Positions 5,598 through 52,472 of a stretch of DNA of 64,000 bases are shown here, in pieces. The notes under the pieces were generated by a model, which worked only from the letters and a program-made list of their open reading frames with translations, was not told the origin of the DNA and did no database searches. The first letter of the stretch is position 1. Every line of letters begins with the position of its first letter. The position numbers and the translations under genes were made by a program. The DNA comes from an uncultured Candidatus Saccharibacteria bacterium (GTDB lineage Bacteria; Patescibacteriota; Minisyncoccia; Phycocordibacterales; UBA9973), in contig CAZNZN010000001.1 in the NCBI GenBank assembly GCA_964577515.1, positions 876-64,875 of the forward strand. Direction: 5' to 3'.

Positions 5598-5611
5598 ACC
5601 ATAACTCTTGA

Positions 5612-23875: not shown

Positions 23876-24033
23876 ATACCAAGTATACTATCTCTATTAT
23901 AAGGATTTACACTCTTATGAGAGTACCTTATGTTCCGAGGAAACCTTGGGAGGCGTGACTGACCCCGGACAGAGAAAATATTTAGCAAAATATTTTCGTG
24001 TTTTCACAGGAATATAAGTACGAGAATAGTATT

Positions 24034-31711: not shown

Positions 31712-33199
31712 TTACTCTTCGAGCTCTTCCCAGAGAATGATTTGGTATTTGTCAGATGCAAGCGGAAAATTTGGGGGTGGCGCATAGAGAAGGTTTGTAT
31801 CGTAGGTAATAGTACGAGTATCATATCCTGTGCCATCAGTATATGCATACCCATATCGTTGATTTGTCCCAAGCATTCCATAAAGCGAGATGCTATTGCG
31901 ATACACGTTGCTTCCACAATAGTTTGTCCCCCCACCATTTGTTGGAGGATCATAGTACGGCCGACCAATACGTCCATTTTGAGCAATCAATGCAGCATCA
32001 ATTTTAAGATTATTTGCTGAAAATAGCCCTGTAGTAATGTTATTTTGAGCAACAAGAGCAATAACATCTGACCCGTCATAATTGGTATAGCTCAGGTTAT
32101 TATTAACAATGATAGATCTTCGAGTTGTCGCGTTGTCAGGAAAACGAGCAGCCGCAATAGTAATTCTAGCGGTGTTTATTTGCCCCTCAACCCATACGTT
32201 GTCATCAACATAAATCAACCCATTAGAAGGTATCGTGTAATTTGCAACAAATGTTTTAGTGCCTATGCTCCAAGTACCCCAGTTTGCCTCACCAGTAACA
32301 TTTGTACAGTTATTTGGTGCAGCAGTGAGTGTATTTACCTTATACACATCAAAAGTATCATTTGTTTTGAGGATTATTTGGTACCCTTGAGCTCCAGACG
32401 GCAGAAGCGCTACTCCTCCTGCTTGCGCCTGTGTTTTGATTGTTGCGAGATCGTTTGTAATCCCAGCAAAATCAACAGCAGGAACAGGAAATGATCGTCC
32501 AGCCTTAAAAACATCTGTCCGAGTAGCAATTGAAGAAGGCGGTGCTTCTGCTGGACGAAAAGAAGTGTTTACCGTACCTGTACCAGCAGTAATATGCGTA
32601 TGAACACCAAACTCATTTCCCCCACTATGATCAGGATCATCGTAGGAAGTCTTTGCACTAGTTATTTTGTTCCATGCAACTCCATCAAAACGGATTCCTC
32701 CGTTTGAATGCAATGGCCCATACACAATAGTCCCTTCTCCAAAACGAATATCCGCATTCGCAAGTACTGAGTATTTTGCCAAAGAAGGGATAGCAAGATG
32801 GACAATGATGCTTCGAGAAGCTGAAGTATCAGCAAGCGCTGTTCCTGTTGATTTTATTTTTACCAATGTTGATCCGTCTGGTGGTGGTGTAATACTGAGT
32901 GTGTAAGTACCAATTTGTTGCCCCTCTTTGTCAGTAAACGGGTATGTATACGGTCCGGCCCCAGCATTTCCGAGAGTGTACCCATTCTGATAATGTGCCA
33001 AATACCATCGTGCATACTCGATACCAGCTTCTGCTATCTGCAAGGACACCTCTCTGCTTTGCACTCGTCGAGAAAGTTTTGTACTTGTCGCTCCCCATGA
33101 AACAAATGCGACAACCACCGTTATACTAATTGCCGCAAAAATCAACACCCCCATAAGAAGCATCCCTTTTTGTTTTAAGGTGTAAAGATTTTTTCTCAT
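31712..33199 (-). CDS. PilX-like minor pilin / pilus-associated protein
   Basis: N-terminal KQKGMLLMGVLIFAAISITVVVAF resembles the PilX N-terminal domain. The rest is a Gly/Thr/Asn-rich beta-rich region. Confidence 0.5.
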   Translation of the reverse strand: MRKNLYTLKQKGMLLMGVLIFAAISITVVVAFVSWGATSTKLSRRVQSREVSLQIAEAGIEYARWYLAHYQNGYTLGNAGAGPYTYPFTDKEGQQIGTYTLSITPPPDGSTLVKIKSTGTALADTSASRSIIVHLAIPSLAKYSVLANADIRFGEGTIVYGPLHSNGGIRFDGVAWNKITSAKTSYDDPDHSGGNEFGVHTHITAGTGTVNTSFRPAEAPPSSIATRTDVFKAGRSFPVPAVDFAGITNDLATIKTQAQAGGVALLPSGAQGYQIILKTNDTFDVYKVNTLTAAPNNCTNVTGEANWGTWSIGTKTFVANYTIPSNGLIYVDDNVWVEGQINTARITIAAARFPDNATTRRSIIVNNNLSYTNYDGSDVIALVAQNNITTGLFSANNLKIDAALIAQNGRIGRPYYDPPTNGGGTNYCGSNVYRNSISLYGMLGTNQRYGYAYTDGTGYDTRTITYDTNLLYAPPPNFPLASDKYQIILWEELEE

Positions 33200-33828
33200 T
33201 GTTGTATTTTAAGGTTACGAATAGCGACCTGCGAACTGACTTCTGCTACAGGAGGAGGTTGCTTTGTATCTTGATCAATTCTTATCTTAATACCAATCAA
33301 GCGCACCGACTCCAAAGCACCCGAAGTTGGGTCAACAATACCTCCAGAGCCTCCAGTATAGGTATCACTATAATAGGTAAACATAGAGATACTTTCAGAT
33401 TGATTTCTGACCCCTGTCATAAAGGTAGTAGTTATTTTATTTGCTTGGTTATAGACAAGCGGGTTCCCTGTTGGTTTAATCACTTCTTTTATTAGATTCG
33501 TCCCTGAAACACTGTACTTAACCCATTCTTTTAAATTATCATTATCAATATCGCTATAGAAAGAGAAGCTATAGGCCCCTATTGCATCAATCGGGTACGC
33601 ACCAGCATTTGAAGGGCTCGATGAACGAATTTCTTCAGTCATTGGACGAAGGAGTTTTTGTGCACTATCGGCAGTAGAAAGTGTATTATTAAAATATCGC
33701 CCATAAGAGAAAACATCTGCTTCAAACTTTCCAATAACAACACTGAGTACTCCGACGATAGCAACAACGACAAGAATCTCAATGAGTGTAAGTCCTTTAT
33801 TCTTATGGAGTGATTGTTGTTGTATCAT
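33196..33828 (-). CDS. type IV pilin-like protein (prepilin N-terminal methylation motif)
   Basis: KGLTLIEILVVVAIVGVL class-III signal (G/TLIE). Start overlaps the upstream gene. Confidence 0.7.
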   Translation of the reverse strand: MIQQQSLHKNKGLTLIEILVVVAIVGVLSVVIGKFEADVFSYGRYFNNTLSTADSAQKLLRPMTEEIRSSSPSNAGAYPIDAIGAYSFSFYSDIDNDNLKEWVKYSVSGTNLIKEVIKPTGNPLVYNQANKITTTFMTGVRNQSESISMFTYYSDTYTGGSGGIVDPTSGALESVRLIGIKIRIDQDTKQPPPVAEVSSQVAIRNLKIQQ

Positions 33829-35572
33829 ACGTATCACCATTAATTGTAATATCTTTTACTACTGACGTATAGCCGGACTTACTTATAATCATACTGTATA
33901 TACCGTTTGAAAGTCCCCCAAAGTCAATCTGCCCAGGAGGAAGACATCCAGAAGAGTATGTAATACCTATATCACTTATACTTGGTGTTTTGGTTGTATC
34001 AATGGTTGAAAGAAATATCTTATAACGAAGGTATTGGTCTCCATTATGACTATCAGCGATATCTGCTCCGTTCACTGTGTAGTATGTTTGATCTGTGCCA
34101 TCAGGACCGACAAAGTTCCATGTTGTAGCATCATTATTGGTTGCTATTTGAAAACGTATCGCACTTGCTCCTACTCCAACAGGCTGAGTCCCTGGGAGCC
34201 AAGATAGTTGCTGAAATGTTGTCGGCGCACCAAAGTCGATAGTTGAAGAGGTAAGCGATCCGTTTTGAATGTATAGTCCAGCGCTTCCCAAAAGAGTGAT
34301 TGCTCCAACCGTGCTGTAGTCAATATTTCCATCAGAAGAAGCAAATTTTGTTTCATCGGTAAACAATGACTGTCCGCCACCACCGCTCCAATCTGTCTGC
34401 GTTAGCGAGCCGACACTTGTTTGACCACTACGACTTGCTGGACCGGAAAGAGCTACAGTAGCACCTGCGACAGGAAGACCTGAAGCATCAACAACTGCAA
34501 CAACAAGACGGTTGGGGGCTTCATCGTCTAGTGTAAGCGTCACTTGCGGCGCAGCTCCGGGCGAAATTGATAGCGGAGCAATAGGGTTGGTCCCCACAAT
34601 ATCGTATGTTGTCCCATTAATAACAGGAGAGTACGTGTCCCATTCAATACCTGAAAGGGTCAATGTACTTCCTGTCACAGAAAAAGGAATAGTAGTTTTT
34701 CTAACATCAGGGCTAGTTCCTATAAGTTTTGTTCCTACAAAACTACCAGATACACCACTGATGACAGTACATTGTGTAGTGCGCAAAGCAAGTGTTACTG
34801 TTGCGGTTGTATCAATAGCAAACGTTGATTGTGTAACAGTATTTGCAGCAACAGTAAGATGCGGCTTCACTGGATTAGGGTTACCTGTATCACCAGGCGT
34901 ATAGGTTCGGTCAACAGAATACCCTGATTTTGTCACAGTGATTTTATACTGCTCCGTCGAAGGAGGAGCATCAACAATAGTAAGCACCCCGTTCGTATCG
35001 GTAGTATCAGTAATGTTCACCTGTGGATTTAAGGCGGTGTTTTGTATTGTTACAGTAGCAGCAGGAACAGGTGCACCATTTGCATCAATAGCTTTTATTA
35101 TAAGCGCACCATTTCCATTTTCGGTTTCTAACCCTTTAGGAGCAACACCACTAGTATATTCAGCGGTAACAGGAGTAATACAAGAAGTGCACGCTACCTC
35201 TATAGAAACAAGTTTGTTGTCTGCAGGAGATAAATCGTTTGGTGTACCACCAAGGGTGCCATCCGCAGGGTAATCAATGTTACGAATTGTTGTTGTGACA
35301 AGAAAAGTAATACCGTTACGAACAACAGTCGCTGTCTGCGCAACGATTCCTGAAGGGATACCGTTTATTGTTCCAACATCTGTATATTGGAGGTTACGAA
35401 TAAATTCCATTTTTTCACTGGCGATCTGCGTTGCGATAGTCTTAACACGGATCCGTGTCGCAACTTCAGAAAGCTTTGCATATAATTGATATAGTGCTAC
35501 CGAGAAAACAACAAAAACAGCTGCTGCCACAAGTGTTTCTATAAGTGTTGTTCCTCGCTGAGAGCGACGCAT
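33803..35572 (-). CDS. large (589 aa) type IV pilin-like protein with carboxypeptidase-regulatory-like beta-sandwich repeats
   Basis: RGTTLIETLVAAAVFVV prepilin motif. Repeated ATVTIQNT...TDTNGVLTI-like segments. Confidence 0.65.
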   Translation of the reverse strand: MRRSQRGTTLIETLVAAAVFVVFSVALYQLYAKLSEVATRIRVKTIATQIASEKMEFIRNLQYTDVGTINGIPSGIVAQTATVVRNGITFLVTTTIRNIDYPADGTLGGTPNDLSPADNKLVSIEVACTSCITPVTAEYTSGVAPKGLETENGNGALIIKAIDANGAPVPAATVTIQNTALNPQVNITDTTDTNGVLTIVDAPPSTEQYKITVTKSGYSVDRTYTPGDTGNPNPVKPHLTVAANTVTQSTFAIDTTATVTLALRTTQCTVISGVSGSFVGTKLIGTSPDVRKTTIPFSVTGSTLTLSGIEWDTYSPVINGTTYDIVGTNPIAPLSISPGAAPQVTLTLDDEAPNRLVVAVVDASGLPVAGATVALSGPASRSGQTSVGSLTQTDWSGGGGQSLFTDETKFASSDGNIDYSTVGAITLLGSAGLYIQNGSLTSSTIDFGAPTTFQQLSWLPGTQPVGVGASAIRFQIATNNDATTWNFVGPDGTDQTYYTVNGADIADSHNGDQYLRYKIFLSTIDTTKTPSISDIGITYSSGCLPPGQIDFGGLSNGIYSMIISKSGYTSVVKDITINGDTYDTTTITP

Positions 35573-35579
35573 GGTATTG

Positions 35580-36788
35580 TTATTTAATTGAATCCATTAT
35601 TGAATACATAGGAGAGAGCATTGAAACCGCAAAAAATCCAACAGCTGCTCCGATAAAAATCATAAGTACTGGTTCAATAATCGTCGAGAGATCTTTAGTT
35701 TTATTATCGACTTCTCCTTCATAAAAAGTAGCGACGTCTAAAAGCATCGTTCCAAGATTTCCTGTCTCCTCTCCTACTTCTATCATCTCGCTCATCATCA
35801 CAGGGTAGAGTTGTGTATGTGTTTTAAATACTCCAGAAATAGGAGCACCTTTCTGCACTGCAGCTTCGACTTCTTCAAGCACTTCTTTATAATACGCGTT
35901 TTGCACAACCTCTTTTGTAATAGCAATCGCTCGACTAATAGAAACGCCTGACCCTAGAAGAGATGAAAGTGTTCGCGTTGTACGAGCAGTATTCACTTCC
36001 TTTGCAATCCCTCCAACAACAGGAAGACGTGTAGAAAGCCAATCAATCATCCTTTTTGTTCTTGGTATCTTACTTATCGCTACTCCAAGACCAACAACCG
36101 CAGCAAGCGCGAGGAAAACTAACAGCACATGATTTGATATCAAGTCACTAAGTCCTATAACAAATTTTGTTGAACCAGGAAGTTCTGTACCAAGATCTTT
36201 AAAAGTCTTCGTGAGTGTTGGGACAACATAAATAAACATAAGTATCGCTATAAGTATGATCGCTGACATGATGATAGATGGGTACATCATTGCGCTTTTT
36301 ATTTTTTTATTTAACGCATAACTTTTTTCAAGGTTAAGCCCGATTTCATTGAGTGTTTTTGGGAGACCACCTGACTCTTCTCCTGCGCGAACCATAGCAA
36401 CAAACAGCGGTGAAAACACTTTGGGAAACTTTGTAAGCCCTTCAGAGAACGTCCCTCCTTTATCAATTGTTTCTGAGAGTGTTTGGATTATTTTTTTAAA
36501 GTAAGCATTTGTAGTCTGCTTAGAGAGTACCTGAAACGCTCTCGAAAGAGAGAGTCCTGCGCGAAGCATCCCTGAAAGATTTTTAGTAAAGATAATTTTT
36601 TCACTCAGCTTAACACTGTTACCTATAAAAGGAATAGTGATATTCATAGCCCCCTTCTTTTCTTCAAGCATAACAGGTGAAAGCCCTTGATTTTTTAGCG
36701 CAACAATAGCAGTTGCTTTATCATCGGCCTCGAGGGTTCCACTCACTACTCTTCCTGTTACTTGTCGTGCTTTGTAAGAAAACTTCAT
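35580..36788 (-). CDS. pilC: type IV pilus assembly platform protein PilC (GspF family)
   Basis: 402 aa. Two T2SSF repeats and 3 TM helices. Confidence 0.85.
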   Translation of the reverse strand: MKFSYKARQVTGRVVSGTLEADDKATAIVALKNQGLSPVMLEEKKGAMNITIPFIGNSVKLSEKIIFTKNLSGMLRAGLSLSRAFQVLSKQTTNAYFKKIIQTLSETIDKGGTFSEGLTKFPKVFSPLFVAMVRAGEESGGLPKTLNEIGLNLEKSYALNKKIKSAMMYPSIIMSAIILIAILMFIYVVPTLTKTFKDLGTELPGSTKFVIGLSDLISNHVLLVFLALAAVVGLGVAISKIPRTKRMIDWLSTRLPVVGGIAKEVNTARTTRTLSSLLGSGVSISRAIAITKEVVQNAYYKEVLEEVEAAVQKGAPISGVFKTHTQLYPVMMSEMIEVGEETGNLGTMLLDVATFYEGEVDNKTKDLSTIIEPVLMIFIGAAVGFFAVSMLSPMYSIMDSIK

Positions 36789-36853
36789 GTCTCTCTAGTA
36801 TACCGTGTGACATAAAAAAAACGACCCTTGGTAGGATCGTTTTGTTGAAAACA

Positions 36854-38602
36854 TTACTCACTCACCACACGGAGCACTTCTTCAATGGTTGTTTTTCCTT
36901 GCACTGCTTGAAAGATACCATCTTCAATCATTGTTATCATCCCCTCTTTTTTTGCTTGTGCCTCTACCTCGTCAGCAGATCCGCCGCGTAGAATGATTTC
37001 CTTCACTGCGGGGCTCACTTTGAGTGCCTCATGAATACCAACGCGGCCCTTATATCCATCCTCTGATTCTTCATTTTTTACTGGACGAAAGAGAGGTATC
37101 TCTTTCCATGGCGTTTTTGGTTTTATTATCTGCTCTCCTTCAAGGAACCCACGGATACGTTCAAGATCAACTATCTTGTTAAGGTTCACTATCTCTGCAT
37201 CAGTTAAGAAATACTGTTCTTTTTTTGCAGTGAGTCGACGTACAAGACGCTGTGCAATAATCACCTTTGCAGTAGAAACGATCAGAAACGGTTCAACCCC
37301 CATATCTATAAGCCGAGGAATAGCCCCAGCAGCTGAGTTGGTGTGGATAGTAGAAAGCACCAAGTGACCAGTAAGCGCAGCATTCACCGCAAGAGAAGCC
37401 GTCTCTCCATCACGAATCTCCCCCACCATAATGATATTTGGATCTTGTCGAAGGAGTGCACGAAGCCCGTTTGCAAACGTCATACCAATCTCACTTTTTA
37501 CTTGCGTTTGATTGATACGTGGCATTTGATACTCAATCGGATCTTCAATGGTTGAGATATTCACCGCAGGAGTATTTAAAATATCAAGCATTGTATAGAG
37601 CGTCGTTGTCTTTCCTGATCCTGTCGGACCAGACGCAAGCACAATCCCTGAGTGCTGTTTCATTCCTTCGTGGATACTTTCAAGACATGATCCGTGAAAC
37701 CCAAGCCCTTCAAGAGTGAACCCGTGTGAAGACTCACGCAAAATACGTATCACCGTCTTCTCGCCAAAGTATGTTGGGAGTGTTGAAACACGAAATGATA
37801 CGGGTGAATCATCAAGTACGATTTTGAACCGTCCGTCTTGTGGAAGACGTTTTTCGTCAAGTTTCAAATTTGAAAGGACCTTGATACGAGCCGTCATTGC
37901 TGGAGCAGCGTCTTTCGGAAGCGTCATAGCGTCATGGAGTATCCCGTCAATACGATATCGCACCACCAGTGACTCTTCTCCAGGCTCAATATGTACATCA
38001 GAAGCTCCTTGCAAGATAGCGTGTGAAATAAGACTGTCAACGATTTTCACCACTGGCAAATCCTCTGCAAGTTCTTTGAGATCTTTTTCTGATGTTGTGT
38101 CGTCTTTCTCATCAACTTTTTGAATACTCCCGACCTCTTTTTGAATAATAGAATCAAACTCTGCCTGAAGACTCTTTTTGTACTGCAGTAGTACCGCCTT
38201 TATAGATTCACTATCAGTAAGACGAGGAAGAATACGAAGTCCTGTTTTTTTCTTTACGAAATCAATCGCAGGAAGGTTATCAATATCGAGAAGACATATT
38301 TCGAGATCGTTTCCCTTTTTTCGACAAGGCACCACGTTATATTTACGTGCAATTGGTTCTGGAATTAGTTGCAGTATTTCTTTATCGATTTTTTCTTTTT
38401 CAATATTAAGGTATGGGACACCGATCACGTACGCCTGCAACTTACGAAGCTCTTGCTCTTTGAGTTTGTTGTTTGTAAGGAGGTAGTCAGAAAGCGTTGT
38501 TCCTTTTGCTTTTTTTTCTGCTTCAAACGCATTCAAATCATCAACAGAGATGATGTTCGTATCAAGAATAAGTCGTGTTAATTTTGCTTCATCAACAACC
38601 AT
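36854..38602 (-). CDS. pilB: type IV pilus assembly ATPase PilB (GspE family)
   Basis: Walker A GPTGSGKTTTL, Asp box, His box. N-terminal GSPII-like domain. Confidence 0.9.
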   Translation of the reverse strand: MVVDEAKLTRLILDTNIISVDDLNAFEAEKKAKGTTLSDYLLTNNKLKEQELRKLQAYVIGVPYLNIEKEKIDKEILQLIPEPIARKYNVVPCRKKGNDLEICLLDIDNLPAIDFVKKKTGLRILPRLTDSESIKAVLLQYKKSLQAEFDSIIQKEVGSIQKVDEKDDTTSEKDLKELAEDLPVVKIVDSLISHAILQGASDVHIEPGEESLVVRYRIDGILHDAMTLPKDAAPAMTARIKVLSNLKLDEKRLPQDGRFKIVLDDSPVSFRVSTLPTYFGEKTVIRILRESSHGFTLEGLGFHGSCLESIHEGMKQHSGIVLASGPTGSGKTTTLYTMLDILNTPAVNISTIEDPIEYQMPRINQTQVKSEIGMTFANGLRALLRQDPNIIMVGEIRDGETASLAVNAALTGHLVLSTIHTNSAAGAIPRLIDMGVEPFLIVSTAKVIIAQRLVRRLTAKKEQYFLTDAEIVNLNKIVDLERIRGFLEGEQIIKPKTPWKEIPLFRPVKNEESEDGYKGRVGIHEALKVSPAVKEIILRGGSADEVEAQAKKEGMITMIEDGIFQAVQGKTTIEEVLRVVSE

Positions 38603-38650: not shown

Positions 38651-39739
38651 TTAAAACTCTTTAAAAATTGATTTTCGCTTATTGAGCTCAGACGTATCGT
38701 TTGGATCGTACACGCCGTTGGTATAACACCCCGGATCATTTGCATCTTTTACACCGTCACCGTCATTATCAATACCATCGCTACATTCAGGTTGCGGTGC
38801 ACCGGTCACTGTAACTGTTGCGTTGGCATCAGTAGTCCCTCCTGCTCCAGTACATGAGACAGTGTAGGTAGTAGTACTTGCAGGAGATACTGCGAGAGAT
38901 CCACTCGTTGCACCTCCAGTATTAAACCCAAACCCACTACATGATGTTGCGTTTGTTGAACTCCAAGTAAGTGTTGAAGAATTCCCGAGCGGTATCGATG
39001 TAGGGTTTGCAGTAAGAGAAGCTGTTGGAGCAGGTGGATTTACCTGACAAATACTTCCGTTCCATGTTGTCCCCCCAGCACATGAAGCTGTTGCAGAAGA
39101 CTGTGCGAGAAGCACTGCATTGTGGTACAGATAAAAATCAGTTTGCCCATAGCCAAGCGTTGTCGCTTGCGTCCCTCCAGCAAGTGGAGACGGGGTAAAT
39201 GATGCAGGAGAGCCAGTGTTTCGAGTAATCGCTGTAGGGTTCACCGTGAGATTTGCAGTAGTCCATGAAACAGTACTTCCACAAGACGAAGCATTTGCAG
39301 CAATGGTACACCCTACAGCTGATAGGGTCCCTGAAGGCGCCCCTCCGTTGTTTACCACAACAAGCGCAGTATCTGACGCATTCGCATACCCAGCCTTCAC
39401 ACAGGTTATTTCAAAGAGATGACTTCCAGCGGTAAGTCCTGTGATATCTTCAAACTGTGTCGCGTTTGCACTCTTATTCCCTGACCACCAACCGTTGTTT
39501 GTTGCTGTACAACTATCAGGAGATCCTGTGGTGGTCCATGTAAGACGTGTTTGGTTGGTAGGGAGAGTCATTGTATCTGGAACAGCAGTAAGTGTTACTG
39601 TGATAGCAACAGGAGCTCCTCCATCTACAACATACGGGAGTGCACTACTATAAGGGACAAAGCCTGCTAAAGCCTCCCTTGAAAAACCAAAGAAAGTGAA
39701 AGCAGTTAAAACAATAAAAGAAAGAAAGTATTTATTCAT
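38651..39739 (-). CDS. secreted Thr/Ser/Gly-rich protein with a C-terminal Asp-rich Ca-binding-like motif
   Basis: Signal peptide, then repeated Cys-containing beta-rich segments. C-terminal CSDGIDNDGDGVKDANDPGC resembles TSP3/dockerin-like Ca-binding motifs. Confidence 0.55.
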   Translation of the reverse strand: MNKYFLSFIVLTAFTFFGFSREALAGFVPYSSALPYVVDGGAPVAITVTLTAVPDTMTLPTNQTRLTWTTTGSPDSCTATNNGWWSGNKSANATQFEDITGLTAGSHLFEITCVKAGYANASDTALVVVNNGGAPSGTLSAVGCTIAANASSCGSTVSWTTANLTVNPTAITRNTGSPASFTPSPLAGGTQATTLGYGQTDFYLYHNAVLLAQSSATASCAGGTTWNGSICQVNPPAPTASLTANPTSIPLGNSSTLTWSSTNATSCSGFGFNTGGATSGSLAVSPASTTTYTVSCTGAGGTTDANATVTVTGAPQPECSDGIDNDGDGVKDANDPGCYTNGVYDPNDTSELNKRKSIFKEF

Positions 39740-39768
39740 ATCAATAACTATGGTTAGAACTGACTAAT

Positions 39769-41724
39769 TTATTCACAATATTCTCCATCAACGATTTCAA
39801 TACTCAAAGGGAGTGCCCCACTCATATCTACGTTCGACCATGTAAACGTAGGGTCTGGGTCACCTCTTTGCTGTACTGCACAGGTCGACATTCTGTTTCC
39901 GTACGTGTCATACAGGTTAGTATGACCTCCTGGCATTGAGCTACCCAAAGACCATCGAATATACACATCAGATACTCCAAAAAAATTTAGAGGGCCGGCA
40001 GTGCCACCACCAGGACCAAGGGGGAATGGATTATTTGATGGCACTAATGAAACACCGTCAACAGCAGCATCTTCCAAAATAGTCGCCAGTGAATTATTTG
40101 TAGCGTTAAACTCATGTACACCAGAATTCACAGAATCATCTACCTCAACGGTAAAGCTGACATAAAACGTCTGTGGCAAAGGAGGAGTTGTGGGGACGTT
40201 CACTGTGAAATACTGTGATGCCGGTGCAAAATAAGGACTATATGCAGGAATAGAAACTACGCCAGGAAAAAGATTAGCTGTGTTTCCTGTAGGAAGATCT
40301 ATCCATGAGAAGGTAACCGTTTGATCAAGTGCTGACAAATTTTCAATGTAGCCATCCACCTGTATCTCATCCCCTTGTGAAAAAGGTTGACCAGGGTGGG
40401 TAAAGTTGGACAAGCTTATAGTCACATACAACTCATTATTTGCACCAGCATAAAACTGAGCAGCTTGTACTTCCGCTGTAGGAAGAACACTAAGAGCAAG
40501 GAATATAACAAACCCAGCAATGATTTGCGGAGATGCTCGTCGCTTCTTTATATAGAGTCCGATAAGTGCAATAACAACAAGGATAAGAACGAGAAGCACC
40601 GCTCCTTGTCCCCCAGAAAATACACTAGGATTCTTTGTTGATGTTGTGGCAATACTGGTTTCGTCTTGCGCAACTGTAGCACCTGCAGCATTTGTGACTG
40701 CAACAGAAACTACTGGATTAAAACAGTTATGTTTTACTTGCACAGTTGCTGTTTGTACCCCGTTTTTTGGTGACGAAACTACTGCTTTACCGCAGGTAAG
40801 CCCTCCACTTGTCTTTATGACAACTGCAGCATCTTTGAAAACAGCCCCTGCACTAGTAAGCGCAAATGCTATTACTGCTTGTTCACCTTTAGCGTAATAA
40901 TCCTTATCAGCAAGAATACTTTTGATAGAAGCAAATGATCCAAAGACACTGTATCCCGCAACAACACTGTTTGATACTGATTGTCCGTTTACAAGCTGTA
41001 CGACTGTTTTATAGAGCCCTGCATCTTTTGGAACAGGAAGAGTGACTGCAATTGTTTTCTTTTCAGCTGGCTTCACCAAAAAAGGAGTAGTCGTACCTCC
41101 GATAGCTTCTACAGAAGCGCCGTAGATGTTTCCTGAAAATGTTTTAAAAGAAGGAGTGCCTGCAATAGGACCACTTGCGGTGTTGGTAACAACACAGGTA
41201 AGCACCGGTGCTTCGTTTTCACGGAGAAGCACTGTAGATGATAGTTGCAACGACTTTTTCTGTTCAGCACCACTGACAGTACAGCTTCCTGGGACAATAA
41301 CGAGTCCCTTCTCTTCTGCACTGAAGGTGACATCTTTCAATGTCATCAGTCCAAGTGTAAGTCCTGACTTTTCAGAAACAACAAGCTGCATCGTGTAGGT
41401 ACCACTAAGCACTGCTGGTGGTACATAGACTGCACTCTTCTTTAGAGTGCCTTGTTCCGCTAGAGCAAAAACCTCTGGGAAAACTGTCTCATCAACAACA
41501 ACCCGATCTTTGTTCAAAAGGCGAATACCGTACATCACTTCAGGATGTGCACCTGCACCATTTGTCATGGTAAATGAAAAGGCAACCGAACGACCTACTT
41601 GGTCAGTAACGGAAGCACCTTGAATATTTACTTGCGAAAGTTGTCGAACTTGTTGCGCAAACGCGACAGGCGAAGCGACAAACATTCCGAGGACAATCAA
41701 AACACCTACAATGATTCTCTTCAT
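39769..41724 (-). CDS. large surface protein with two extracellular domains joined by a predicted TM helical hairpin
   Basis: Signal peptide MKRIIVGVLIVLGMFVASPVAFA, a ~390-aa domain, TM (GAVLLVLILVVIALIGLY), KKRRASPQ, a second hydrophobic helix (IIAGFVIFLALSVLPTA), then a ~260-aa Pro-rich domain. Confidence 0.55.
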   Translation of the reverse strand: MKRIIVGVLIVLGMFVASPVAFAQQVRQLSQVNIQGASVTDQVGRSVAFSFTMTNGAGAHPEVMYGIRLLNKDRVVVDETVFPEVFALAEQGTLKKSAVYVPPAVLSGTYTMQLVVSEKSGLTLGLMTLKDVTFSAEEKGLVIVPGSCTVSGAEQKKSLQLSSTVLLRENEAPVLTCVVTNTASGPIAGTPSFKTFSGNIYGASVEAIGGTTTPFLVKPAEKKTIAVTLPVPKDAGLYKTVVQLVNGQSVSNSVVAGYSVFGSFASIKSILADKDYYAKGEQAVIAFALTSAGAVFKDAAVVIKTSGGLTCGKAVVSSPKNGVQTATVQVKHNCFNPVVSVAVTNAAGATVAQDETSIATTSTKNPSVFSGGQGAVLLVLILVVIALIGLYIKKRRASPQIIAGFVIFLALSVLPTAEVQAAQFYAGANNELYVTISLSNFTHPGQPFSQGDEIQVDGYIENLSALDQTVTFSWIDLPTGNTANLFPGVVSIPAYSPYFAPASQYFTVNVPTTPPLPQTFYVSFTVEVDDSVNSGVHEFNATNNSLATILEDAAVDGVSLVPSNNPFPLGPGGGTAGPLNFFGVSDVYIRWSLGSSMPGGHTNLYDTYGNRMSTCAVQQRGDPDPTFTWSNVDMSGALPLSIEIVDGEYCE

Positions 41725-41843
41725 ATTAAAATTTTTATATTGAAAACAACTACTAATACTTGTAAAGTATAGCATTTAAAAAAGAGGAAAAGAAAAAACC
41801 TTCGGTGTACACCGAAGGTTTTAATCTTTTTGCATCTTACTAC

Positions 41844-42527
41844 TTACTGCTTCACCCACCGTGTCCTAGTCAACGTTCCGTTAGACGACGGAGCTGACGT
41901 TAAGTCCATTACCGTTTCCGATATGAACTCAACTGTTTGAACCTTATTAGCTGTAGTGAGAGTATTTCCCACTAAAGCCCAATGACTGTTCCAGCTATCC
42001 TGAGGTGAACCGCAAACGGTCGTTTGAAGCGTCAGGAAGTAATCCTGCTGCTTAAAGACCATAGGAGGCTGGCACGGCATTGCTGCAGTACCATCAAACC
42101 ATACCGTCTGACCTGGAAACAAAGCCCACTGGTTTGTTGCAACCCAGCGAGAACTTCCAGTGCAAATCAACCGTGTTTCATTCTGTGTAAACACAGAGAC
42201 TGAAACGGTTTTTGTTGCAGGGGTCGTCCCCTCTTCGCCCTGAGCGACGAAAGCTAACTGCGTGTCAGCAGTTGCAGTAACAGTGTAAGATCCTGTTACG
42301 GCCGGCTGAACCTGGTTCCCCACCAACACTGTTTTTGCGTAAGCAGTGCTGAAAGGAATTGTAACCACTTGTCCATACAGCGCCTTTGCAGGCTCTGACA
42401 CGGTCAGGGTTGGGTTTTGTTTAACCGGATCCGGATTTTTAGGGATGTCATCTTTGCCGCATGATGCAATAAAAAGGGTGGCAAATACAGCGCTCCACCC
42501 TAAAGCGCCTGTAAAAAACTTTTTCAT
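41844..42527 (-). CDS. lipoprotein (hypothetical)
   Basis: Lipobox LFIASCGKDD. Local GC is visibly higher than the surroundings. Confidence 0.5.
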   Translation of the reverse strand: MKKFFTGALGWSAVFATLFIASCGKDDIPKNPDPVKQNPTLTVSEPAKALYGQVVTIPFSTAYAKTVLVGNQVQPAVTGSYTVTATADTQLAFVAQGEEGTTPATKTVSVSVFTQNETRLICTGSSRWVATNQWALFPGQTVWFDGTAAMPCQPPMVFKQQDYFLTLQTTVCGSPQDSWNSHWALVGNTLTTANKVQTVEFISETVMDLTSAPSSNGTLTRTRWVKQ

Positions 42528-42747
42528 TTTTTAGGTTTTCTAGGTGAGAGGCAATATCGCCAAAAGAAGTTTTAAGGTGCTTAGAGACCTTTGAGTACAG
42601 TATACACCTTTTAGGGCTTTTTGTCAAAGTTTTCCACAGGACTTGACCATTCTTAGCACATATACTACTATATGTGTAGTAAGTGTCCGGCCGAGAGGTG
42701 CGGACATTTCTGTTAAAAACCCTTACAAATCAATACAAAATCAATAT

Positions 42748-48208: not shown

Positions 48209-49729
48209 ATGGACAACTTCATCCTCGCAATCGCCATGCTCCTTGCAGGTGGAGCGCTTGGGTACAGTATTAGAGCAGTTATTTTTGTTCTCAGAAAAAA
48301 CTCTGTCGAGTTCTCTGTTTCACAGCGACTAATGCACGCTCGTGAGCAAGCACAAAAAATCGTTGACGAAGCTCAAGAAAAAGTCACCGCGTTGTGGGAC
48401 GAAATAAGAGATACTGAAAAACAAAAAGAGGGTGACTATAAGCAAACCGAGGATCGTCTTATAAAGAAAGAATCTCTTCTTGATATTCGAGCACAAGAGC
48501 TGGATGAGCGCTCTCGACAACTAGAACAACGCTCCCTCCAAGTAGAAACACTTACCCGACAGGCTGAAACACTCCTTGAAACACGAGAAAGTGAACTCGA
48601 ACGCCTTGCGGGATTCTCACAAGAAGACGCACGGAACGCACTTGTTATTGATACACAAAAAAAATATGAGGAAGATCTTCTTGTGCAGAGCATGAAACTC
48701 GATACCGTATTACGAGAAACCCTTGAAGAGAGGGCAAAAAACATTCTTCTTACGACAATTCAACGACTTGCCGTGCCAACAACCAACGAACTCACCACTG
48801 CAACTGTCACACTCCCTAGTGATGACCTCAAAGGGAAAATCATCGGAAAAGAAGGAAGGAACATACGAGTATTCGAACGTATCGCAGGGGTAGAGCTGTT
48901 AGTAGATGAAGCCCCAGGATGTATTATTGTTTCTTGTTTTGATCCAGTACGACGAGCTATTGCAGCAGATGCTCTGGAGGTACTCGTAAAAGACGGCAGG
49001 ATCCAACCCGCAAAAATCGAGGAGGAGCTTGAAAAAGCAAAAGAGCGAATTCACCAAACCATCAAAGATAAAGGTGCCCAAGCTGTCTATGAGTGCGGGA
49101 TTTACACGCTTGATCCGCGAGTTGTAGCAATACTCGGGAGACTGCACTACCGCACAAGCTATGGACAGAACGTATTGCAACACTCTATTGAAATGGCGCA
49201 CATTGCAGGAATGCTCGCAGCCGAGCTTGGTGCGGATGTTGCTATAGCAAAAGCTGGAGCACTTGTGCACGACATAGGAAAAGCACTTGACCACGAGTTT
49301 GAAGGAACACATGTAGAGATTGGAATAAAAATGCTTCGACGTTTTGGCACCGATGAAAAAATTATTAGCGCAATGAAGAGTCACCACGACGACTGTCCTC
49401 ACGAATCAGTAGAAGCAGTACTCGTACAGACCGCAGATATGATATCTGGAAGTCGACCTGGTGCACGCCGAGACACTGCCGAGATGTACCTCAAACGACT
49501 CACCGACCTCGAAGGCCTTGCCACACGGTTTGGTGGAGTAGAAAAAGCATACGCACTACAAGCAGGAAGAGAGATTCGCATTTTTGTTCATCCAGAAGCT
49601 ATCTCCGATATGGAGGCGCGAACACTTGCTCGATCAATAGCACAAAATATTGAAGAAGAGCTACGCTATCCAGGACAAATAAAGGTGACCATTATTCGGG
49701 AAACTCGTATCACTGACTATGCACGATAA
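48209..49729 (+). CDS. rny: ribonuclease Y
   Basis: N-terminal TM, coiled coil, KH (GKIIGKEGRNIRVFE) and HD (HSIEMAHIAG...HD) domains. Confidence 0.9.
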   Translation: MDNFILAIAMLLAGGALGYSIRAVIFVLRKNSVEFSVSQRLMHAREQAQKIVDEAQEKVTALWDEIRDTEKQKEGDYKQTEDRLIKKESLLDIRAQELDERSRQLEQRSLQVETLTRQAETLLETRESELERLAGFSQEDARNALVIDTQKKYEEDLLVQSMKLDTVLRETLEERAKNILLTTIQRLAVPTTNELTTATVTLPSDDLKGKIIGKEGRNIRVFERIAGVELLVDEAPGCIIVSCFDPVRRAIAADALEVLVKDGRIQPAKIEEELEKAKERIHQTIKDKGAQAVYECGIYTLDPRVVAILGRLHYRTSYGQNVLQHSIEMAHIAGMLAAELGADVAIAKAGALVHDIGKALDHEFEGTHVEIGIKMLRRFGTDEKIISAMKSHHDDCPHESVEAVLVQTADMISGSRPGARRDTAEMYLKRLTDLEGLATRFGGVEKAYALQAGREIRIFVHPEAISDMEARTLARSIAQNIEEELRYPGQIKVTIIRETRITDYAR

Positions 49730-49766
49730 AAAAAATACTCGGACCATGTCCGAGTATTTTTTTTAC
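49727..49766 (+). terminator. intrinsic terminator after rny
   Basis: A8-ATACTCGGAC-CAT-GTCCGAGTAT-T8 (10-bp stem). Confidence 0.65.
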
Positions 49767-49781
49767 TGTATACTTGTAAAT

Positions 49782-52472
49782 ATGTTTACTCCTCGCGAAA
49801 CTTTTTCTACAACACAACAAGAGCTATCACACCTTGGCCAAGAATCGCAGCGCGCATATATATTACAGAAAGAACATGTTCGATCGCTCGAATCAGCAAC
49901 GACACATACCGTTGAAACATACGCTCGAGCACAAGCAGCTGATTTTCTCCATGAGAGCGCAATACTTCCCGCCCATGAGGCAGAGCGCATTATTCTTCGA
50001 CTTAAACCAGAGTCTCATGACAAAAAAATAGAAGAGCTTTTTGGTGTCATGGTAGAAAAAGGAGTTAAAAACGCTCTTGATATTGTACAAAAAATGAAAG
50101 ACCCTCATTTACGAGATGATTTTCATCGATTCCTTGTGCAGTACCTCCATAGTATCGGAGCAATCCCAGGACTTAAAGAAAAAGATGGTCTCTATAGTGA
50201 GCTTTCTCACACGCTCTTTTCTATCGCTCTCCCCCAAGAAGAAAATGAGGACTTCAAAAAGAAAACAGCTGCAATGGAACAGTTTTGTACAAGTCTTGTT
50301 TCACTTGTTGGTATTGGTAACAGCGTTGCAATAGAACTCGCAGTTGAACACAGTAGGAAAGATATTGTTGTCTATATTGCCGTACCCAAAAATACTATTG
50401 ACGGCTTTGAGAAGCTTGTACATTCTTTTTTTCCTGGAGCAGCAGTGGAGGAAGCAGTAGATGATTACAACATTTTTGGAACTGAGACGCCAGCAATTTC
50501 TGGAAGTACAGCAACACTACGAGATGCAGCATGGAAACCATTGCAAACATACGAGGATTTCCAAAACGATCCTTTTGGTGCAATCCTAGGAGCCCTTTCT
50601 CGTATAGCAGAAACAGGAGAAGGCTGCGCTATACAGTGTGTTATTGCAGAACCGTTTGAGCGTATTACCGAACGAAACAACGCTATTATCAGCGATACAC
50701 AAAAAGGAGGAGTCACTGTCAAAGATCTTTATAAGAATGCAACTGAAGGAGTAGTTACTGGTCTTGCAAAGGAAGCATGGTCACTATTTTCTTCAAAAAA
50801 ACACGAAGAAAACACCACTGTTGATACTGAAGGGTTGGAACTTCTCAAAAAGAAAAATAGTGCCCGTATCGTAGAAGCAACACTGCGCATTATTGCGAGT
50901 GCTCAAAACAGTACACGCGCTGAACAACTACGTACATCCGTAGAGGCGACCTTTGGTCAATTTACACACCCACAAGGAAATATGCTCACCTGGGTTCCAG
51001 CAAAAGGTGATGCCCTACTATCACTCGCAGAAGATTTCTCATTCCGTCGCAGCGGGAGAAATCCGCTTGAACTCTCTCTCAAAGAAACCGCTTCTCTTTT
51101 TCACTTCCCTACAGGAACCAAGAGCCCCCACGAGCTTATAGGAAACGACGGTGTAAGCGCGCCTGCACCACAAAACGCAACTCAAAGAGGAGAAGGAGTG
51201 TACCTTGGAACCAATACCTTCAGAGGACAAACGAGTGATATATTCCTCGCAAAAGAAGACCGTGTTCGTCACTGTTATGTGATAGGGCAAACAGGGACAG
51301 GAAAAACGACCATACTAAAAAACATGGTGATCCAAGACATCAAAAACGGTAACGGCGTCTGCTTCATTGATCCACATGGAAGCGATCTAGAAGATATTTT
51401 GGCAAATATTCCTGCTGAACGTATCGACGATGTTATCTACTTTGACCCAGCGCATACCGCTCGACCTATGGGGCTCAACATGCTTGAGTATGATATACAG
51501 TTTCCTGAACAAAAAATCTTTGTTATCAACGAACTTCTTGCTATTTTCAACAAACTCTTTGATATGAAAGTTGCCGGAGGGCCTGCCTTTGAACAATACT
51601 TCAGAAACTCTGCAGGGTTGGTCATGGAGGATCCCGAAAGTGGATCTACACTACTTGAAATTGGACGAGTACTTTCTGACAAAGCATTCCGACAGATGAA
51701 ACTCGAACGATGCAAAAACCCTATCATCAAACAGTTTTGGGAAAATGCAGAAAAAACTACAGGTGAAGCCTCTCTTGCAAACTTTGTTCCCTACATCACC
51801 AACAAGTTTGATGTATTCATCTCTAACGACATCATGCGTCCAGTGATTGCGCAACAAAAAAGTGTTCTTAATTTCCGCGAAATAATGGACAAGAAAAAAA
51901 TACTTTTGGTAAACCTTTCAAAAGGACGCCTCGGAGATATAAACTCTCACCTTATCGGTCTTGTTCTTGTAGGAAAGCTCACCATGGCAGCACTCTCTCG
52001 TGTGGATATGGTTGGCAAAGGACCGATCAACGATTTCTACCTCTATATTGATGAGTTCCAAAATGTTACTACTGACTCTATTGCAACCATTCTCTCAGAA
52101 GCTCGAAAATATCGACTTTCACTTACCGTTGCACACCAATACATTGAACAGCTTGAAGAAAATATAAAAAACGCAGTATTTGGTAACGTCGGAAGTATGA
52201 TCATTTACCGTGTTAGCCCTGAAAATGCTGCAGTATTCGAACGCCAACTTGCGCCAACCTTTACTCCTGATGATATTCTCAAGTTACAAAACTTCAACGC
52301 TATCGCGAAAATGTTGGTACAAGGAATCCCAGAAAAACCTTTCACGCTTCGCATTCCTCCACCACCAAAAGGAAACGCTACGATTGCTGAAAAGGTAAAA
52401 GAGTTGTCGTATCTCAAATATGGACGCCCTCGTGAGGAGGTTGAGAACGAAATAATGGCACGGTATCGCTAA
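49782..52472 (+). CDS. TraG/TraD/VirD4-like type IV coupling-protein-family P-loop ATPase with a ~450-aa N-terminal domain of unknown function
   Basis: Walker A GQTGTGKTT, Walker B LYIDEFQN. The TraG-D_C-like segment is RKYRLSLTVAHQYIEQLEE...VGSMIIYRVSPENA. No TM helices were seen. Confidence 0.6.
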   Translation: MFTPRETFSTTQQELSHLGQESQRAYILQKEHVRSLESATTHTVETYARAQAADFLHESAILPAHEAERIILRLKPESHDKKIEELFGVMVEKGVKNALDIVQKMKDPHLRDDFHRFLVQYLHSIGAIPGLKEKDGLYSELSHTLFSIALPQEENEDFKKKTAAMEQFCTSLVSLVGIGNSVAIELAVEHSRKDIVVYIAVPKNTIDGFEKLVHSFFPGAAVEEAVDDYNIFGTETPAISGSTATLRDAAWKPLQTYEDFQNDPFGAILGALSRIAETGEGCAIQCVIAEPFERITERNNAIISDTQKGGVTVKDLYKNATEGVVTGLAKEAWSLFSSKKHEENTTVDTEGLELLKKKNSARIVEATLRIIASAQNSTRAEQLRTSVEATFGQFTHPQGNMLTWVPAKGDALLSLAEDFSFRRSGRNPLELSLKETASLFHFPTGTKSPHELIGNDGVSAPAPQNATQRGEGVYLGTNTFRGQTSDIFLAKEDRVRHCYVIGQTGTGKTTILKNMVIQDIKNGNGVCFIDPHGSDLEDILANIPAERIDDVIYFDPAHTARPMGLNMLEYDIQFPEQKIFVINELLAIFNKLFDMKVAGGPAFEQYFRNSAGLVMEDPESGSTLLEIGRVLSDKAFRQMKLERCKNPIIKQFWENAEKTTGEASLANFVPYITNKFDVFISNDIMRPVIAQQKSVLNFREIMDKKKILLVNLSKGRLGDINSHLIGLVLVGKLTMAALSRVDMVGKGPINDFYLYIDEFQNVTTDSIATILSEARKYRLSLTVAHQYIEQLEENIKNAVFGNVGSMIIYRVSPENAAVFERQLAPTFTPDDILKLQNFNAIAKMLVQGIPEKPFTLRIPPPPKGNATIAEKVKELSYLKYGRPREEVENEIMARYR

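Follow-up and report, generated by a model that had tools for sequence, protein, structure and literature searches.

Gene 39769..41724 and the question it raises

The window, the stretch of 64,000 nucleotides of DNA analyzed here, carries on its minus strand a gene (39769..41724, stop codon at 39769-39771) encoding a 651-aa precursor in which two extracellular parts are separated by two hydrophobic segments. A preliminary description of this DNA left two readings, a fusion of two secreted proteins or one protein displaying two ectodomains from a single membrane hairpin, and the question is which of them describes what the gene makes. Each proved partly right: in this precursor two Sec substrates have been stably fused in evolution, and its sequence suggests a hairpin-topology precursor that is probably cut into two polypeptides. 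We regard it as reasonably probable that the gene specifies a polyprotein-like Sec precursor for two surface polypeptides, one a conserved base held in the membrane, the other a fragment that is released separately and bears a variable tip.

Organization of the precursor and its N-terminal ectodomain

The order of elements in the translated ORF is signal peptide, N-ectodomain, first transmembrane segment (TM1), KKRRASPQ loop, second hydrophobic segment (TM2), beta-sandwich and tip. Translation and hydropathy agree with the preliminary description on the ORF, its strand and this order, while the domain sizes had to be corrected: the first ectodomain, put at ~390 aa, has about 350 (residues 24-373), and the second, put at ~260 aa, has about 230 (residues 422-651). 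The second domain had also been called Pro-rich; its enrichment is moderate (8.8% Pro) rather than strong, and it ends with ...GEYCE. The longest possible ORF begins 17 codons upstream, at 41775, and because homologues of the precursor begin at a Met of the MKRII type, 41724 is the likely start. Between residues 380 and 425 there is no in-frame ATG, GTG or TTG, hence no start for a second gene in the loop, so the C-terminal part is made only within the precursor and its independent translation from an internal start is ruled out.

All features of the precursor described below lie on the minus strand. The N-terminal Sec signal peptide (residues 1-23, 41656..41724; MKRIIVGVLIVLGMFVASPVAFA, then QQ) was recognized by hydropathy and ends in PVAFA↓QQ, with A23 nearly invariant in the family alignment. 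The conserved N-ectodomain follows (residues 24-373, 40606..41655); AF2 models it with pLDDT above 90 as three beta-sandwich domains (about 28-135, 141-260 and 264-357), and Cys148/177 and Cys311/334 are among its invariant columns. Fold matches were generic only (Ig-, FN3- or MG-like). The top Foldseek class comprised alpha-2-macroglobulin and complement thioester proteins, with TM-scores of 0.12-0.24; this identity was rejected, as there is no CGEQ motif and the resemblance is that of an MG-like beta-sandwich only. Pfam and NCBIfam searches with the window protein gave noise only, and no match in a profile search of PDB reached an E-value below 0.1. In three proteins, the segment formed by signal peptide 1 and domain 1 weakly matched that formed by signal peptide 2 and the C-domain (E = 1e-5 to 2e-3), which is a hint of internal duplication within the precursor.

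The predicted membrane hairpin and internal signal peptide

TM1 (residues 374-392, 40549..40605; GAVLLVLILVVIALIGLYI) has a hydropathy of 3.1, falls in a predicted helix at 372-392 and is the candidate stop-transfer membrane anchor. A sortase-like reading of TM1 and KKRR (LPXTG, PEP-CTERM or PGF-CTERM) was rejected, because no conserved motif lies upstream and the element is not C-terminal; in 139 of 150 family members the chain extends a further 200 to over 1,400 aa past TM1 and the basic cluster. The KKRRASPQ loop (residues 393-400, 40525..40548), predicted to be cytoplasmic and with K393 invariant, doubles as the n-region of the putative internal signal peptide, whose h- and c-regions occupy residues 401-421 (40462..40524; IIAGFVIFLALSVL-PTAEVQA) according to column statistics and homology with split loci. 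Across 140 aligned hairpin representatives, pairwise below 50% identical, the loop between TM1 and TM2 has a median length of 5 aa and is basic, at least two K/R after TM1 having been a criterion for their selection.

Residues 393-421 have the features of a signal peptide, namely a basic n-region, an h-region followed by a polar c-region, and small residues at -3 and -1. The predicted cleavage position after A421 (PTAEVQA↓AQ) is, by its sequence, a textbook signal peptidase I site. Among the 140 representatives, the -1 column is occupied by Ala in 133, Gly in 3 and Ser in 2, and the -3 column by A in 90, V in 35, T in 7 and S in 2 (A, V or T in 132; the window has V-Q-A); the -2 position is polar, and helix breakers are found at -7 (Pro in 49, or Gly/Ser) and at -6 (T/G/P/S). 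After the site, the family alignment shows D at +1, T at +2 and F/Y/W at +3, and part of this conservation (D-T-F/Y) could serve the fold of the C-domain, not the peptidase.

The gene is naturally split in two at four loci (L028, L030, L034 and L035), two of which, L034 and L035, are found at the syntenic position of the window gene. At these loci the product of gene 1 ends a few residues after the TM1 helix (7-20 aa past TM1, after its basic tail), and gene 2, which overlaps gene 1 or starts 4-12 nt downstream, opens with an ordinary signal peptide followed by the same C-domain. The sites of these signal peptides are MNLKNFKILLFVVAFLILLPAGSAKA↓DSF (…AKA↓DSF) in L028, …HHASA↓DQY in L030, …KPVSA↓DTY in L034 and …KVSA↓NTY in L035. 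An HMM of TM2 plus the C-domain matches three of the four gene 2 products (E = 5.6e-29, 3.9e-15 and 1.5e-16); L035 gene 2, with no reported HMM match, was assigned by its signal peptide and VSA↓NTY site. P0139, recorded together with the split versions, is present on 18 contigs. L027 was rejected as a split form: a frameshift interrupts the gene, and the hairpin is intact when the other frame is read. By comparison with the four split loci, the TM2 segment can act as an export signal of its own, and because orthologous loci exist as two genes, covalent linkage is dispensable. The preliminary suggestion that the second helix followed by AXA is an internal signal peptide is thus borne out by the family-wide A/V-x-A and by the use of the segment as an N-terminal signal peptide in split genes.

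An uncleaved bitopic hairpin, in which one polypeptide displays both ectodomains and the second segment is a reverse signal-anchor, is the strongest alternative, and we think it unlikely though worth weighing. Its topology follows from the hydropathy and the positive-inside loop, AF2 packs the two helices as a hairpin, and the apolar core of TM2 (median 16 aa, up to 24 among the representatives) can span the membrane in some members, signal peptidase cleavage of the precursor being itself a prediction. However, an uncleaved hairpin has no need for Ala at -1 (95%), A/V/T at -3 (94%) or a helix breaker at -6/-7, nor does it fit with split orthologues that use the same segment as an N-terminal signal peptide and dispense with the covalent link.

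For the cleaved precursor, the following course of events is proposed. The N-terminal signal peptide would initiate export of the conserved ectodomain of three beta-sandwiches, TM1 would stop the transfer with the KKRR loop remaining in the cytoplasm, and the second hydrophobic segment, acting as an internal signal peptide, would restart export for the C-terminal part. Signal peptidase I would then cleave after A421 (VQA↓AQ), giving a membrane-anchored base, composed of the N-domain and the TM1-loop-TM2 hairpin, and a free C-fragment, composed of one conserved beta-sandwich and a hypervariable tip. The C-fragment would probably be kept on the cell by docking of its conserved domain onto the base, a step suggested by pTM values only. 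With both products encoded in a single ORF, they would necessarily be made 1:1, and the tip protein would be released beside its anchor.

The C-fragment and its variable tip

The first domain of the C-fragment (residues 422-532, 40129..40461) is a beta-sandwich with AF2 pLDDT of 83-93 and is kept in all homologues. For residues 1-532 AF2 gives a pTM of 0.83, a value that is hard to reach unless the N-domain, the hairpin and the C-domain have a fixed mutual arrangement. The strain-specific tip (residues 533-651, 119 aa, 39772..40128) is modelled with pLDDT below 50 and contains Cys at 615 and 650; the homologue search with these 119 aa found nothing, so the tip is an orphan sequence. Compared with P0002, the window protein is 93% identical over the N-domain, 84% over the C-domain (about 90% outside the tip) and only 18% over the tip. 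At the DNA level, a cassette at 39660..40130 has been replaced relative to the closest relative, L003: the flanks are about 93% identical and the sequence between them is unalignable. The cassette takes in the 3' end of the precursor gene, where the tip is encoded, together with the spacer behind it and the signal-peptide codons of the adjoining gene (its first ~80 nt).

Across the family, the length of the C-fragment varies between about 200 and over 1,400 aa, and the modules found in it are TSP1, InlB-B-repeat, ASH, CARDB, PKD, Big and Hint. A C-terminal Phi-x-E motif occurs in half of the family, and the window protein lacks it. The Pfam search gave no Hint match in the window protein, and Hint matches, all sub-threshold, were confined to its relatives P0003 and L035 gene 2; a polymorphic toxin with a pretoxin-HINT was rejected for the window protein on this ground.

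Four confident beta-sandwiches and a TM anchor in the AF2 model give the tandem-Ig-stalk-plus-anchor arrangement by which fibrillar adhesins are recognized. A role in variable surface recognition or adhesion in an ultra-small episymbiont of the Parcubacteria type is likely by analogy. Because the beta-sandwiches are generic, no diagnostic ligand-binding domain is present and the pLDDT of the tip is low, the adhesin role is argued by analogy, and we infer adhesion from the Ig-like folds and the variable tips only.

Neighbouring genes and the type IV pilus locus

The neighbours named in the preliminary description, a secreted protein, a lipoprotein and pilB on the same strand, were all recovered. 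Downstream of the precursor gene, 38651..39739 (minus strand) encodes a secreted Ig-like-repeat protein of 362 aa ending in …IFKEF, and elsewhere some C-fragments of the family contain fused repeats of this type. On the other side, 41844..42527 (minus strand) encodes a predicted lipoprotein of 227 aa with the lipobox LFIAS↓C, which is conserved in position and fast-evolving. Between the lipoprotein gene and the precursor gene lies a terminator-like hairpin with a 12 bp stem and a T-run (41795..41822, minus strand), and judging from this arrangement transcription probably begins anew at the precursor gene and takes in the downstream genes. Pfam hits and ORFs place type IV pilus genes further downstream (31712..38602, minus strand): pilB (36854-38602), pilC (35580-36788), a 589-aa prepilin with a CarboxypepD_reg domain (33803-35572), a 214-aa prepilin (33196-33840) and a PilX-like protein of 495 aa (31712-33199).

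It is improbable, in our estimate, that the precursor is a dedicated part of the type IV pilus, such as an envelope-spanning conduit or alignment component replacing PilN/PilO/secretin where there is no outer membrane, or a pilus-associated adhesin. The order lipoprotein, precursor, repeat protein, pilB, pilC and three pilins is kept in six lineages of the sub-clade to which the window belongs, down to about 30% precursor identity, the spacers leading to the next genes measure just 29 and 48 nt, and the pilus cluster is without pilM/N/O, all of which speak for such a part. Nevertheless, the protein shows no similarity to any Pil/Gsp family in Pfam, NCBIfam or PDB, its fold matches being the generic Ig/FN3 ones, and hypervariable tips with several paralogues per genome are unusual for core machinery. 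In the sub-clade of the window the whole NusA...TIM region is colinear, and because this syntenic block extends from RNase Y/ClpP/NusA to TIM/PGK, the adjacency to pilB may be plain colinearity. In 20 more distant genomes no pilB was found within 8 kb of family members, so that the linkage is limited to the sub-clade; L014 is the only one of them with a pilC-like match, about 6 kb downstream. All-vs-all clustering of the neighbours at distant loci revealed no conserved gene except family paralogues. The adhesion or host-contact module with pilB that the preliminary description proposed is therefore weakly supported, the gene order holding within the sub-clade and the linkage failing beyond it in the 20 genomes. 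In L001 the precursor is 34% identical, compared with 84% for PilB and 69% for PilC; by these sequence comparisons it evolves much faster than its neighbours.

Breadth of the family and integrity of the fused frame

Clustered at 50% identity, the family has 1,780 representatives at E<=1e-3, of which 1,002 remain at E<=1e-30. Of the top 150 representatives, which are pairwise less than 50% identical, 139 have the signal peptide, N-domain, TM1, basic loop and TM2, and among 22 GTDB genomes all the informative ones show the precursor architecture. This recurrence is far beyond chance, and the fused ORF is genuine and ancient. The family is large, unnamed and unannotated, with no Pfam, NCBIfam or PDB relative, and the literature searched gave no description of it or of a CPR C-terminal motif. 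Some genomes carry two family copies or tandem paralogues.

The possibility that a missed stop or a frameshift in the assembly or its annotation has joined two ordinary genes for secreted proteins is favoured by the split versions of some lineages and by the frameshift just ahead of TM1 at L027, but was rejected as having a negligible probability, given that the identical 651-aa ORF (P0001) is present on four contigs from different sources, that an 88% relative and relatives at 24-37% identity keep a continuous frame through the hairpin, and that the loop offers no start codon for a second gene. For the window gene this excludes the outcome that the preliminary description had named as fatal to its own reading, the fused form being dominant in the family.

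Comparison with known systems

Viral glycoproteins are the textbook case of a precursor with two signal peptides, a design rarely described in bacteria, where isolated cases are known. Precursors of the bunyavirus Gn-Gc type, and those of flaviviruses and alphaviruses, have the same order of signal peptide, ectodomain 1, TM, cytoplasmic segment, internal signal peptide and ectodomain 2; the Gn-Gc polyproteins are processed by host signal peptidase, and their products, made 1:1, assemble together on the membrane (PMC7926653). The viral precursors belong to a viral and eukaryotic ER context and have no sequence or specific fold relationship to the window precursor. Their second product has its own TM anchor, whereas the C-fragment of the window has none, and their cleavage is proven, whereas that of the window precursor is predicted.

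In bacteria, Thony-Meyer et al. reportedly found that the Bradyrhizobium japonicum FbcH cytochrome b/c1 polyprotein is cleaved at an internal signal peptide. It is a precedent for one bacterial ORF giving two membrane or exported proteins through a signal peptidase cut at an internal signal, and the parts of FbcH are encoded as separate genes in other bacteria. FbcH differs in being a respiratory complex subunit with a polytopic upstream part, no variable tip and no homology to the precursor. Leader peptidase (Lep) of E. coli and M13 procoat are helical hairpins with both N- and C-termini outside, and procoat is cut by signal peptidase after insertion. They share with the window precursor two hydrophobic segments, a short basic cytoplasmic loop and flanks that are both outside, but their N-terminal periplasmic tail is tiny, while in the window precursor a domain of 350 aa, equipped with a cleavable signal peptide of its own, comes before the hairpin.

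Fibrillar or stalk-and-tip adhesins resemble the precursor in their strings of Ig-like beta-sandwiches, cell anchor, variable distal modules and fast evolution, and those known consist of one chain, which LPXTG/sortase, a C-terminal TM or an outer-membrane domain fixes to the cell (PMC8286594). The distal modules PKD, CARDB, TSP1 and Big belong to members of the precursor family elsewhere, and the tip in the window is an orphan. We know of no fibrillar adhesin described with an internal signal peptide that splits the anchor from the tip. In Mycoplasma pneumoniae, a genome-reduced, host-attached bacterium, proteolysis of the Mpn142 precursor gives two surface proteins of an adhesion complex, P40 and P90, from one ORF (PMC7156367). 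The cut is not known to involve a TM hairpin or an internal signal peptide, and sequences and folds are unrelated.

Implications

A wider generalization, put forward tentatively, is that these proteins form a widespread, so far undescribed class in Parcubacteria similar to glycoprotein precursors, with double Sec threading, a cut at the internal signal peptide, a conserved membrane base, a tip that docks non-covalently and can be swapped rapidly, modular host recognition exchangeable by cassette, co-expression with the pilus in the lineage of the window, and toggling between fused and split forms. If true, bacteria would offer an abundant, naturally occurring case of a two-signal-peptide precursor that uses stop-transfer and re-initiation, and the coexistence of fused and split orthologues would be a natural experiment on why two Sec substrates fuse. 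Standard annotation would call such a product a membrane protein with 2-3 TM helices and miss the half that is, judging from its signals, a probable released exoprotein. Cultivated CPR/Patescibacteria attach to other cells, and their surface recognition molecules are almost unknown; this large, fast-evolving family with exchangeable tips (at least 1,000 clusters at 50% identity) is a concrete candidate for host-contact specificity.

Architecture of the precursor

The minus-strand ORF at 39769..41724 encodes 651 aa (ORF list, translation); the longest ORF starts 17 codons upstream, and the MKRII-type methionine is the start in all homologues. By hydropathy and inspection (slashes mark predicted cleavage positions), the protein opens with an N-terminal signal peptide (aa 1-23, MKRIIVGVLIVLGMFVASPVAFA/QQ), followed by a V/A/S/T/G-rich region (aa 24-373), a 19-residue apolar helix (TM1, aa 374-392, GAVLLVLILVVIALIGLYI, mean Kyte-Doolittle 3.1) and, directly after it, the loop KKRRASPQ. 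A second, shorter apolar stretch (IIAGFVIFLALSVL then PTAEVQA/AQ, aa 401-421) leads into a C-terminal part of 230 further residues ending in GEYCE. From these elements the chain is predicted to carry two Sec-type export signals and a stop-transfer helix followed by a basic loop in the cytoplasm, giving an N-out/C-out topology. Coordinates and element order agree with the preliminary description, which had recognised two ectodomains around a membrane hairpin; the domains are shorter than it gave (350 and 230 aa instead of 390 and 260), and the second, called Pro-rich, contains only 8.8% Pro. Its structural interpretation was essentially right and is sharpened here to a conserved fusion of two Sec substrates with an internal signal peptide that is probably cleaved.

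Extent of the family

The identical precursor protein occurs on four contigs (NCBI and ENA), and a word-index search returned only four relatives, all of which keep the entire arrangement, at 88%, 34% and 29% identity; these observations essentially exclude an artefactual ORF. When the conserved 532 residues of the precursor were used as the query of an exhaustive profile search, 1,780 cluster representatives matched at E<=1e-3, of which 1,002 reached E<=1e-30. Among the best 150 representatives, the N-domain, TM1, basic loop and second hydrophobic segment are all present in 139, the chain ends shortly after TM1 in 9, and 3 were unscorable. Members are ~560 to 2,185 aa long in total; conservation covers the N-terminal 530 residues, and what follows is variable. 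A GTDB scan (one genome per species) found 22 family loci, nearly all labelled Parcubacteria, Paceibacterota, Moraniibacteriota, Campbellbacteria or Nomurabacteria, and the hairpin is present in all loci that are not interrupted by the end of a contig. At the family locus L027 (3063-3381, MAG WY5.bin169) a frameshift lies just before TM1, with the hairpin and A-R-A/DTY intact in the other frame; the locus is either misassembled or a pseudogene. Some genomes carry two copies or tandem paralogues. Database searches gave no Pfam, NCBIfam or PDB sequence relative of the precursor, and no description of the family was found in the searchable literature.

Conservation of the internal signal peptide

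The hairpin was aligned across 140 representatives, each <50% identical to the others, with A421 of the window as reference column. Position -1 is Ala in 133 of the 140, Gly in 3 and Ser in 2; position -3 is Ala in 90, Val in 35 and Thr in 7; and position -2 is polar (K/S/H/R/Q). Further upstream, Pro occupies -7 in 49 sequences and -7/-6 are otherwise mostly G/S/T, while downstream Asp predominates at +1 (75), Thr at +2 (102) and Phe/Tyr/Trp at +3 (110). The loop is basic, with a median length of 5 residues; median values are 16 residues for the apolar core ahead of the site and 26 residues for the distance from the last loop K/R to the site. The segment thus has the n-h-c organisation and follows the A-x-A rule of signal peptidase I substrates, and its site is as conserved as the N-terminal signal peptide, whose A23 is also at least 90% conserved. 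Between residues 380 and 425 the window gene offers no in-frame start codon (ATG, GTG or TTG), so the C-terminal part can be exported only by re-initiation within the precursor.

Naturally split forms

Four short family members were looked up, and in all four a second gene overlaps gene 1 or starts <=12 nt past its stop; the explanation of short members as truncations was therefore rejected. In L028, and identically in L029 from an independent sample, gene 1 ends in YFRHKKNQNES and gene 2 overlaps it by 11 nt, its product starting MNLKNFKILLFVVAFLILLPAGSAKA/DSFQV…NIGLNKTTYAPGESI. In L030, gene 1 ends in NRRKNTIAKI and gene 2 begins 6 nt later in the same frame (MNYFSVKNFIRFTIALAIMAMMFTTHHASA/DQY). 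The corresponding spacing is 4 nt in L034 (gene 1 end YMKKKKLKESGENFTKKIDL, gene 2 start MKTTLTNIKFITLGLAISLSVFLISKPVSA/DTY) and 11 nt past the stop in L035, a protein found on 18 contigs (gene 1 end YISRKKKINNVTM, gene 2 start MKNILKNIKYIGFGFAVVVTLFSYSKVSA/NTY). An HMM built from the internal signal plus C-domain of fused proteins matches the gene 2 products of L028 (E = 5.6e-29), L030 (3.9e-15) and L034 (1.5e-16), in each case from that product's own signal peptide onwards. No match was reported for the fourth, L035 gene 2, whose putative assignment rests on its position, signal peptide and VSA/NTY site.

L034 and L035 share the syntenic position of the window gene, pointing away from NusA and following the gene for a ~240-aa protein, so both fused and split versions occur among orthologous loci. 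It follows from the split forms that the internal segment has a functioning N-terminal signal peptide as its homologue and that each half can work as a polypeptide of its own, which is precisely the outcome expected if signal peptidase cleaved the fused precursor. The main rival, a hairpin that stays uncleaved and displays both ectodomains, would share the predicted topology and leave the conserved A-x-A site uncut; we consider it rather unlikely.

The same HMM also gave weak domain matches (E = 1e-5 to 2e-3) to the N-terminal signal plus first beta-sandwich, confined to the L018, L014 and L019 proteins, in which an ancient tandem duplication is possible on this weak evidence.

A constant base and a variable tip

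AlphaFold2 on the full precursor (71-sequence alignment) gave three beta-sandwiches at ~28-135, 141-260 and 264-357 (pLDDT >90), helices at 372-392 and 400-411, and a fourth beta-sandwich at 422-530 (pLDDT 83-93), whereas the tip (534-651) was unmodelled (pLDDT <50). The pTM was 0.74 for the full chain and 0.83 without the tip (mean pLDDT 88.8). Since the N-domain is only 63% of the tip-less chain, so high a pTM suggests that the model positions both the C-domain and the hairpin with confidence against it. Four invariant cysteines in the family alignment (148/177 and 311/334) are consistent with extracytoplasmic disulfides.

Compared with the closest relative, P0002, identity is 93% in the N-domain, 75% in the hairpin and 84% in the C-domain, and falls to 18% in the last 119 residues. 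At the DNA level, the window and the related locus L003 are ~93% identical on both sides of 39660-40130 and unalignable inside, a sharp cassette replacement that takes in the tip-coding end, the spacer and, in the next gene, the region for the signal peptide. No homologue of the tip was detectable by search. The C-fragments of the family have a median length of ~370 aa, can exceed 1,400 aa and bear TSP1, InlB-B-repeat, ASH, CARDB, PKD and Big modules. Identity between the window and locus L001 is 34% for the precursor, compared with 84% for PilB, 69% for PilC and 57-67% for the pilins. Tip replacement, varied modules, paralogues and this low identity fit an exposed, diversifying surface molecule.

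In L011, L013, L016, L020, L023 and L024 the Ig-like repeat type (…LTWSSTNATSC…TYTVSCTG…) of the 362-aa neighbour (38651-39739) is built into the C-fragment, a Rosetta-stone-type link between the two adjacent genes. Sub-threshold matches to several Hint or pretoxin-HINT models were seen in the variable C-fragment of the relative P0003 (aa 745-886), followed by a ~70-aa Cys-rich tail, and in L035 gene 2 (4311-5720); they hint that a module there might cleave itself and so set free a small peptide from the terminus.

A motif of the form hydrophobic-x-Glu-x(1-4)-end closes 66 of 137 representatives, against ~3% at random internal cut points (examples are NWKEVAP, NWREVSPN, PIFKEF and PIIKEI). Other secreted neighbours bear it as well, among them the 362-aa repeat protein of the window (38651-38680, …SIFKEF), and it is present at L006, L009, L010, L014-L018, L021 and L024; the window precursor, ending in GEYCE, is without it. 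Searches for an NCBIfam or Pfam model of this motif, and for a paper on it, gave nothing; it may be a tag for sorting or attachment of Parcubacteria exoproteins that has yet to be described.

Genomic neighbourhood

A 227-aa protein with lipobox LFIAS/C is encoded upstream of the precursor gene, from which it is separated by a terminator-like hairpin with a 12-bp stem (41795-41822); its gene (41850-42530) is also unusually diverged from L003 (~65-80% DNA identity). The 362-aa secreted repeat protein follows 29 nt downstream of the precursor gene and pilB a further 48 nt on, in line with the neighbours named in the preliminary description. Next come pilC and three minus-strand proteins with prepilin-type N-termini (589, 214 and 495 aa, 31712-35572). 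A second terminator-like hairpin (36818-36843) lies between pilB and pilC in this same-strand cluster, and both strong hairpins may be attenuators or transcript-stability elements. The pilin set is unusual: the 589-aa prepilin combines an N_methyl motif with a CarboxypepD_reg/Big-like domain, and the 495-aa protein is PilX-like. No pilM/N/O and no short major pilin were seen in the cluster. ComEC is present ~6 kb from the pilus genes as two adjacent minus-strand ORFs (23018-26026; Competence domain 24581-26026, metallo-beta-lactamase domain 23018-23875), a proximity that fits a DNA-uptake role for the pilus of this CPR genome. Adjoining RNase Y in a conserved block, a 917-aa protein (49719-52472, plus strand) matches TrwB/TraG/VirD4-type coupling ATPases; its orthologue in L003 and L004 also has a DUF8128 match.

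The order lipoprotein-like, precursor, repeat protein, pilB, pilC, pilins and TIM is shared by the window, L003, L001, L031, L032 and L033. Across the clade of the window, gene order is preserved all the way from RNase Y/ClpP/trigger factor/NusA to TIM/PGK, so a position next to pil genes says little by itself about function. The family members of 20 more distant genomes have no pilB inside 8 kb and share no other conserved neighbour; the sole pilC-like match is ~6 kb downstream at L014. Given both observations, co-expression with the pilus is treated as a lineage-specific feature and not as the family-defining function, and the adhesion linked to pili that had been proposed at first stays a candidate role. 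A role in the pilus machinery, possible only for the sub-clade of the window, is improbable.

Proposed function

The sequences and their comparison show a conserved peptidase motif, alternation of fused and split forms, predicted beta-sandwich folds and tip replacement. The precursor is a conserved fusion of two Sec substrates in which the internal signal peptide is probably cleaved. Known parallels are the B. japonicum FbcH cytochrome b/c1 polyprotein and the way in which Lep and M13 procoat insert as hairpins; the precursor is homologous to none of them. Its functional layout is also like that of viral glycoprotein precursors, again with no homology: in the bunyavirus Gn-Gc precursor, signal peptidase cuts an internal signal peptide that comes after the first TM anchor (PMC7926653). 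In fold and evolutionary behaviour it is like the stalk-and-tip fibrillar adhesins (PMC8286594), to which it is not homologous. We infer that signal peptidase I likely cuts after A421, which would yield a hairpin-anchored base and a free C-fragment. More tentatively, the conserved C-domain might then dock on the base, and the variable tip might mediate binding to a partner surface, possibly that of a host cell.
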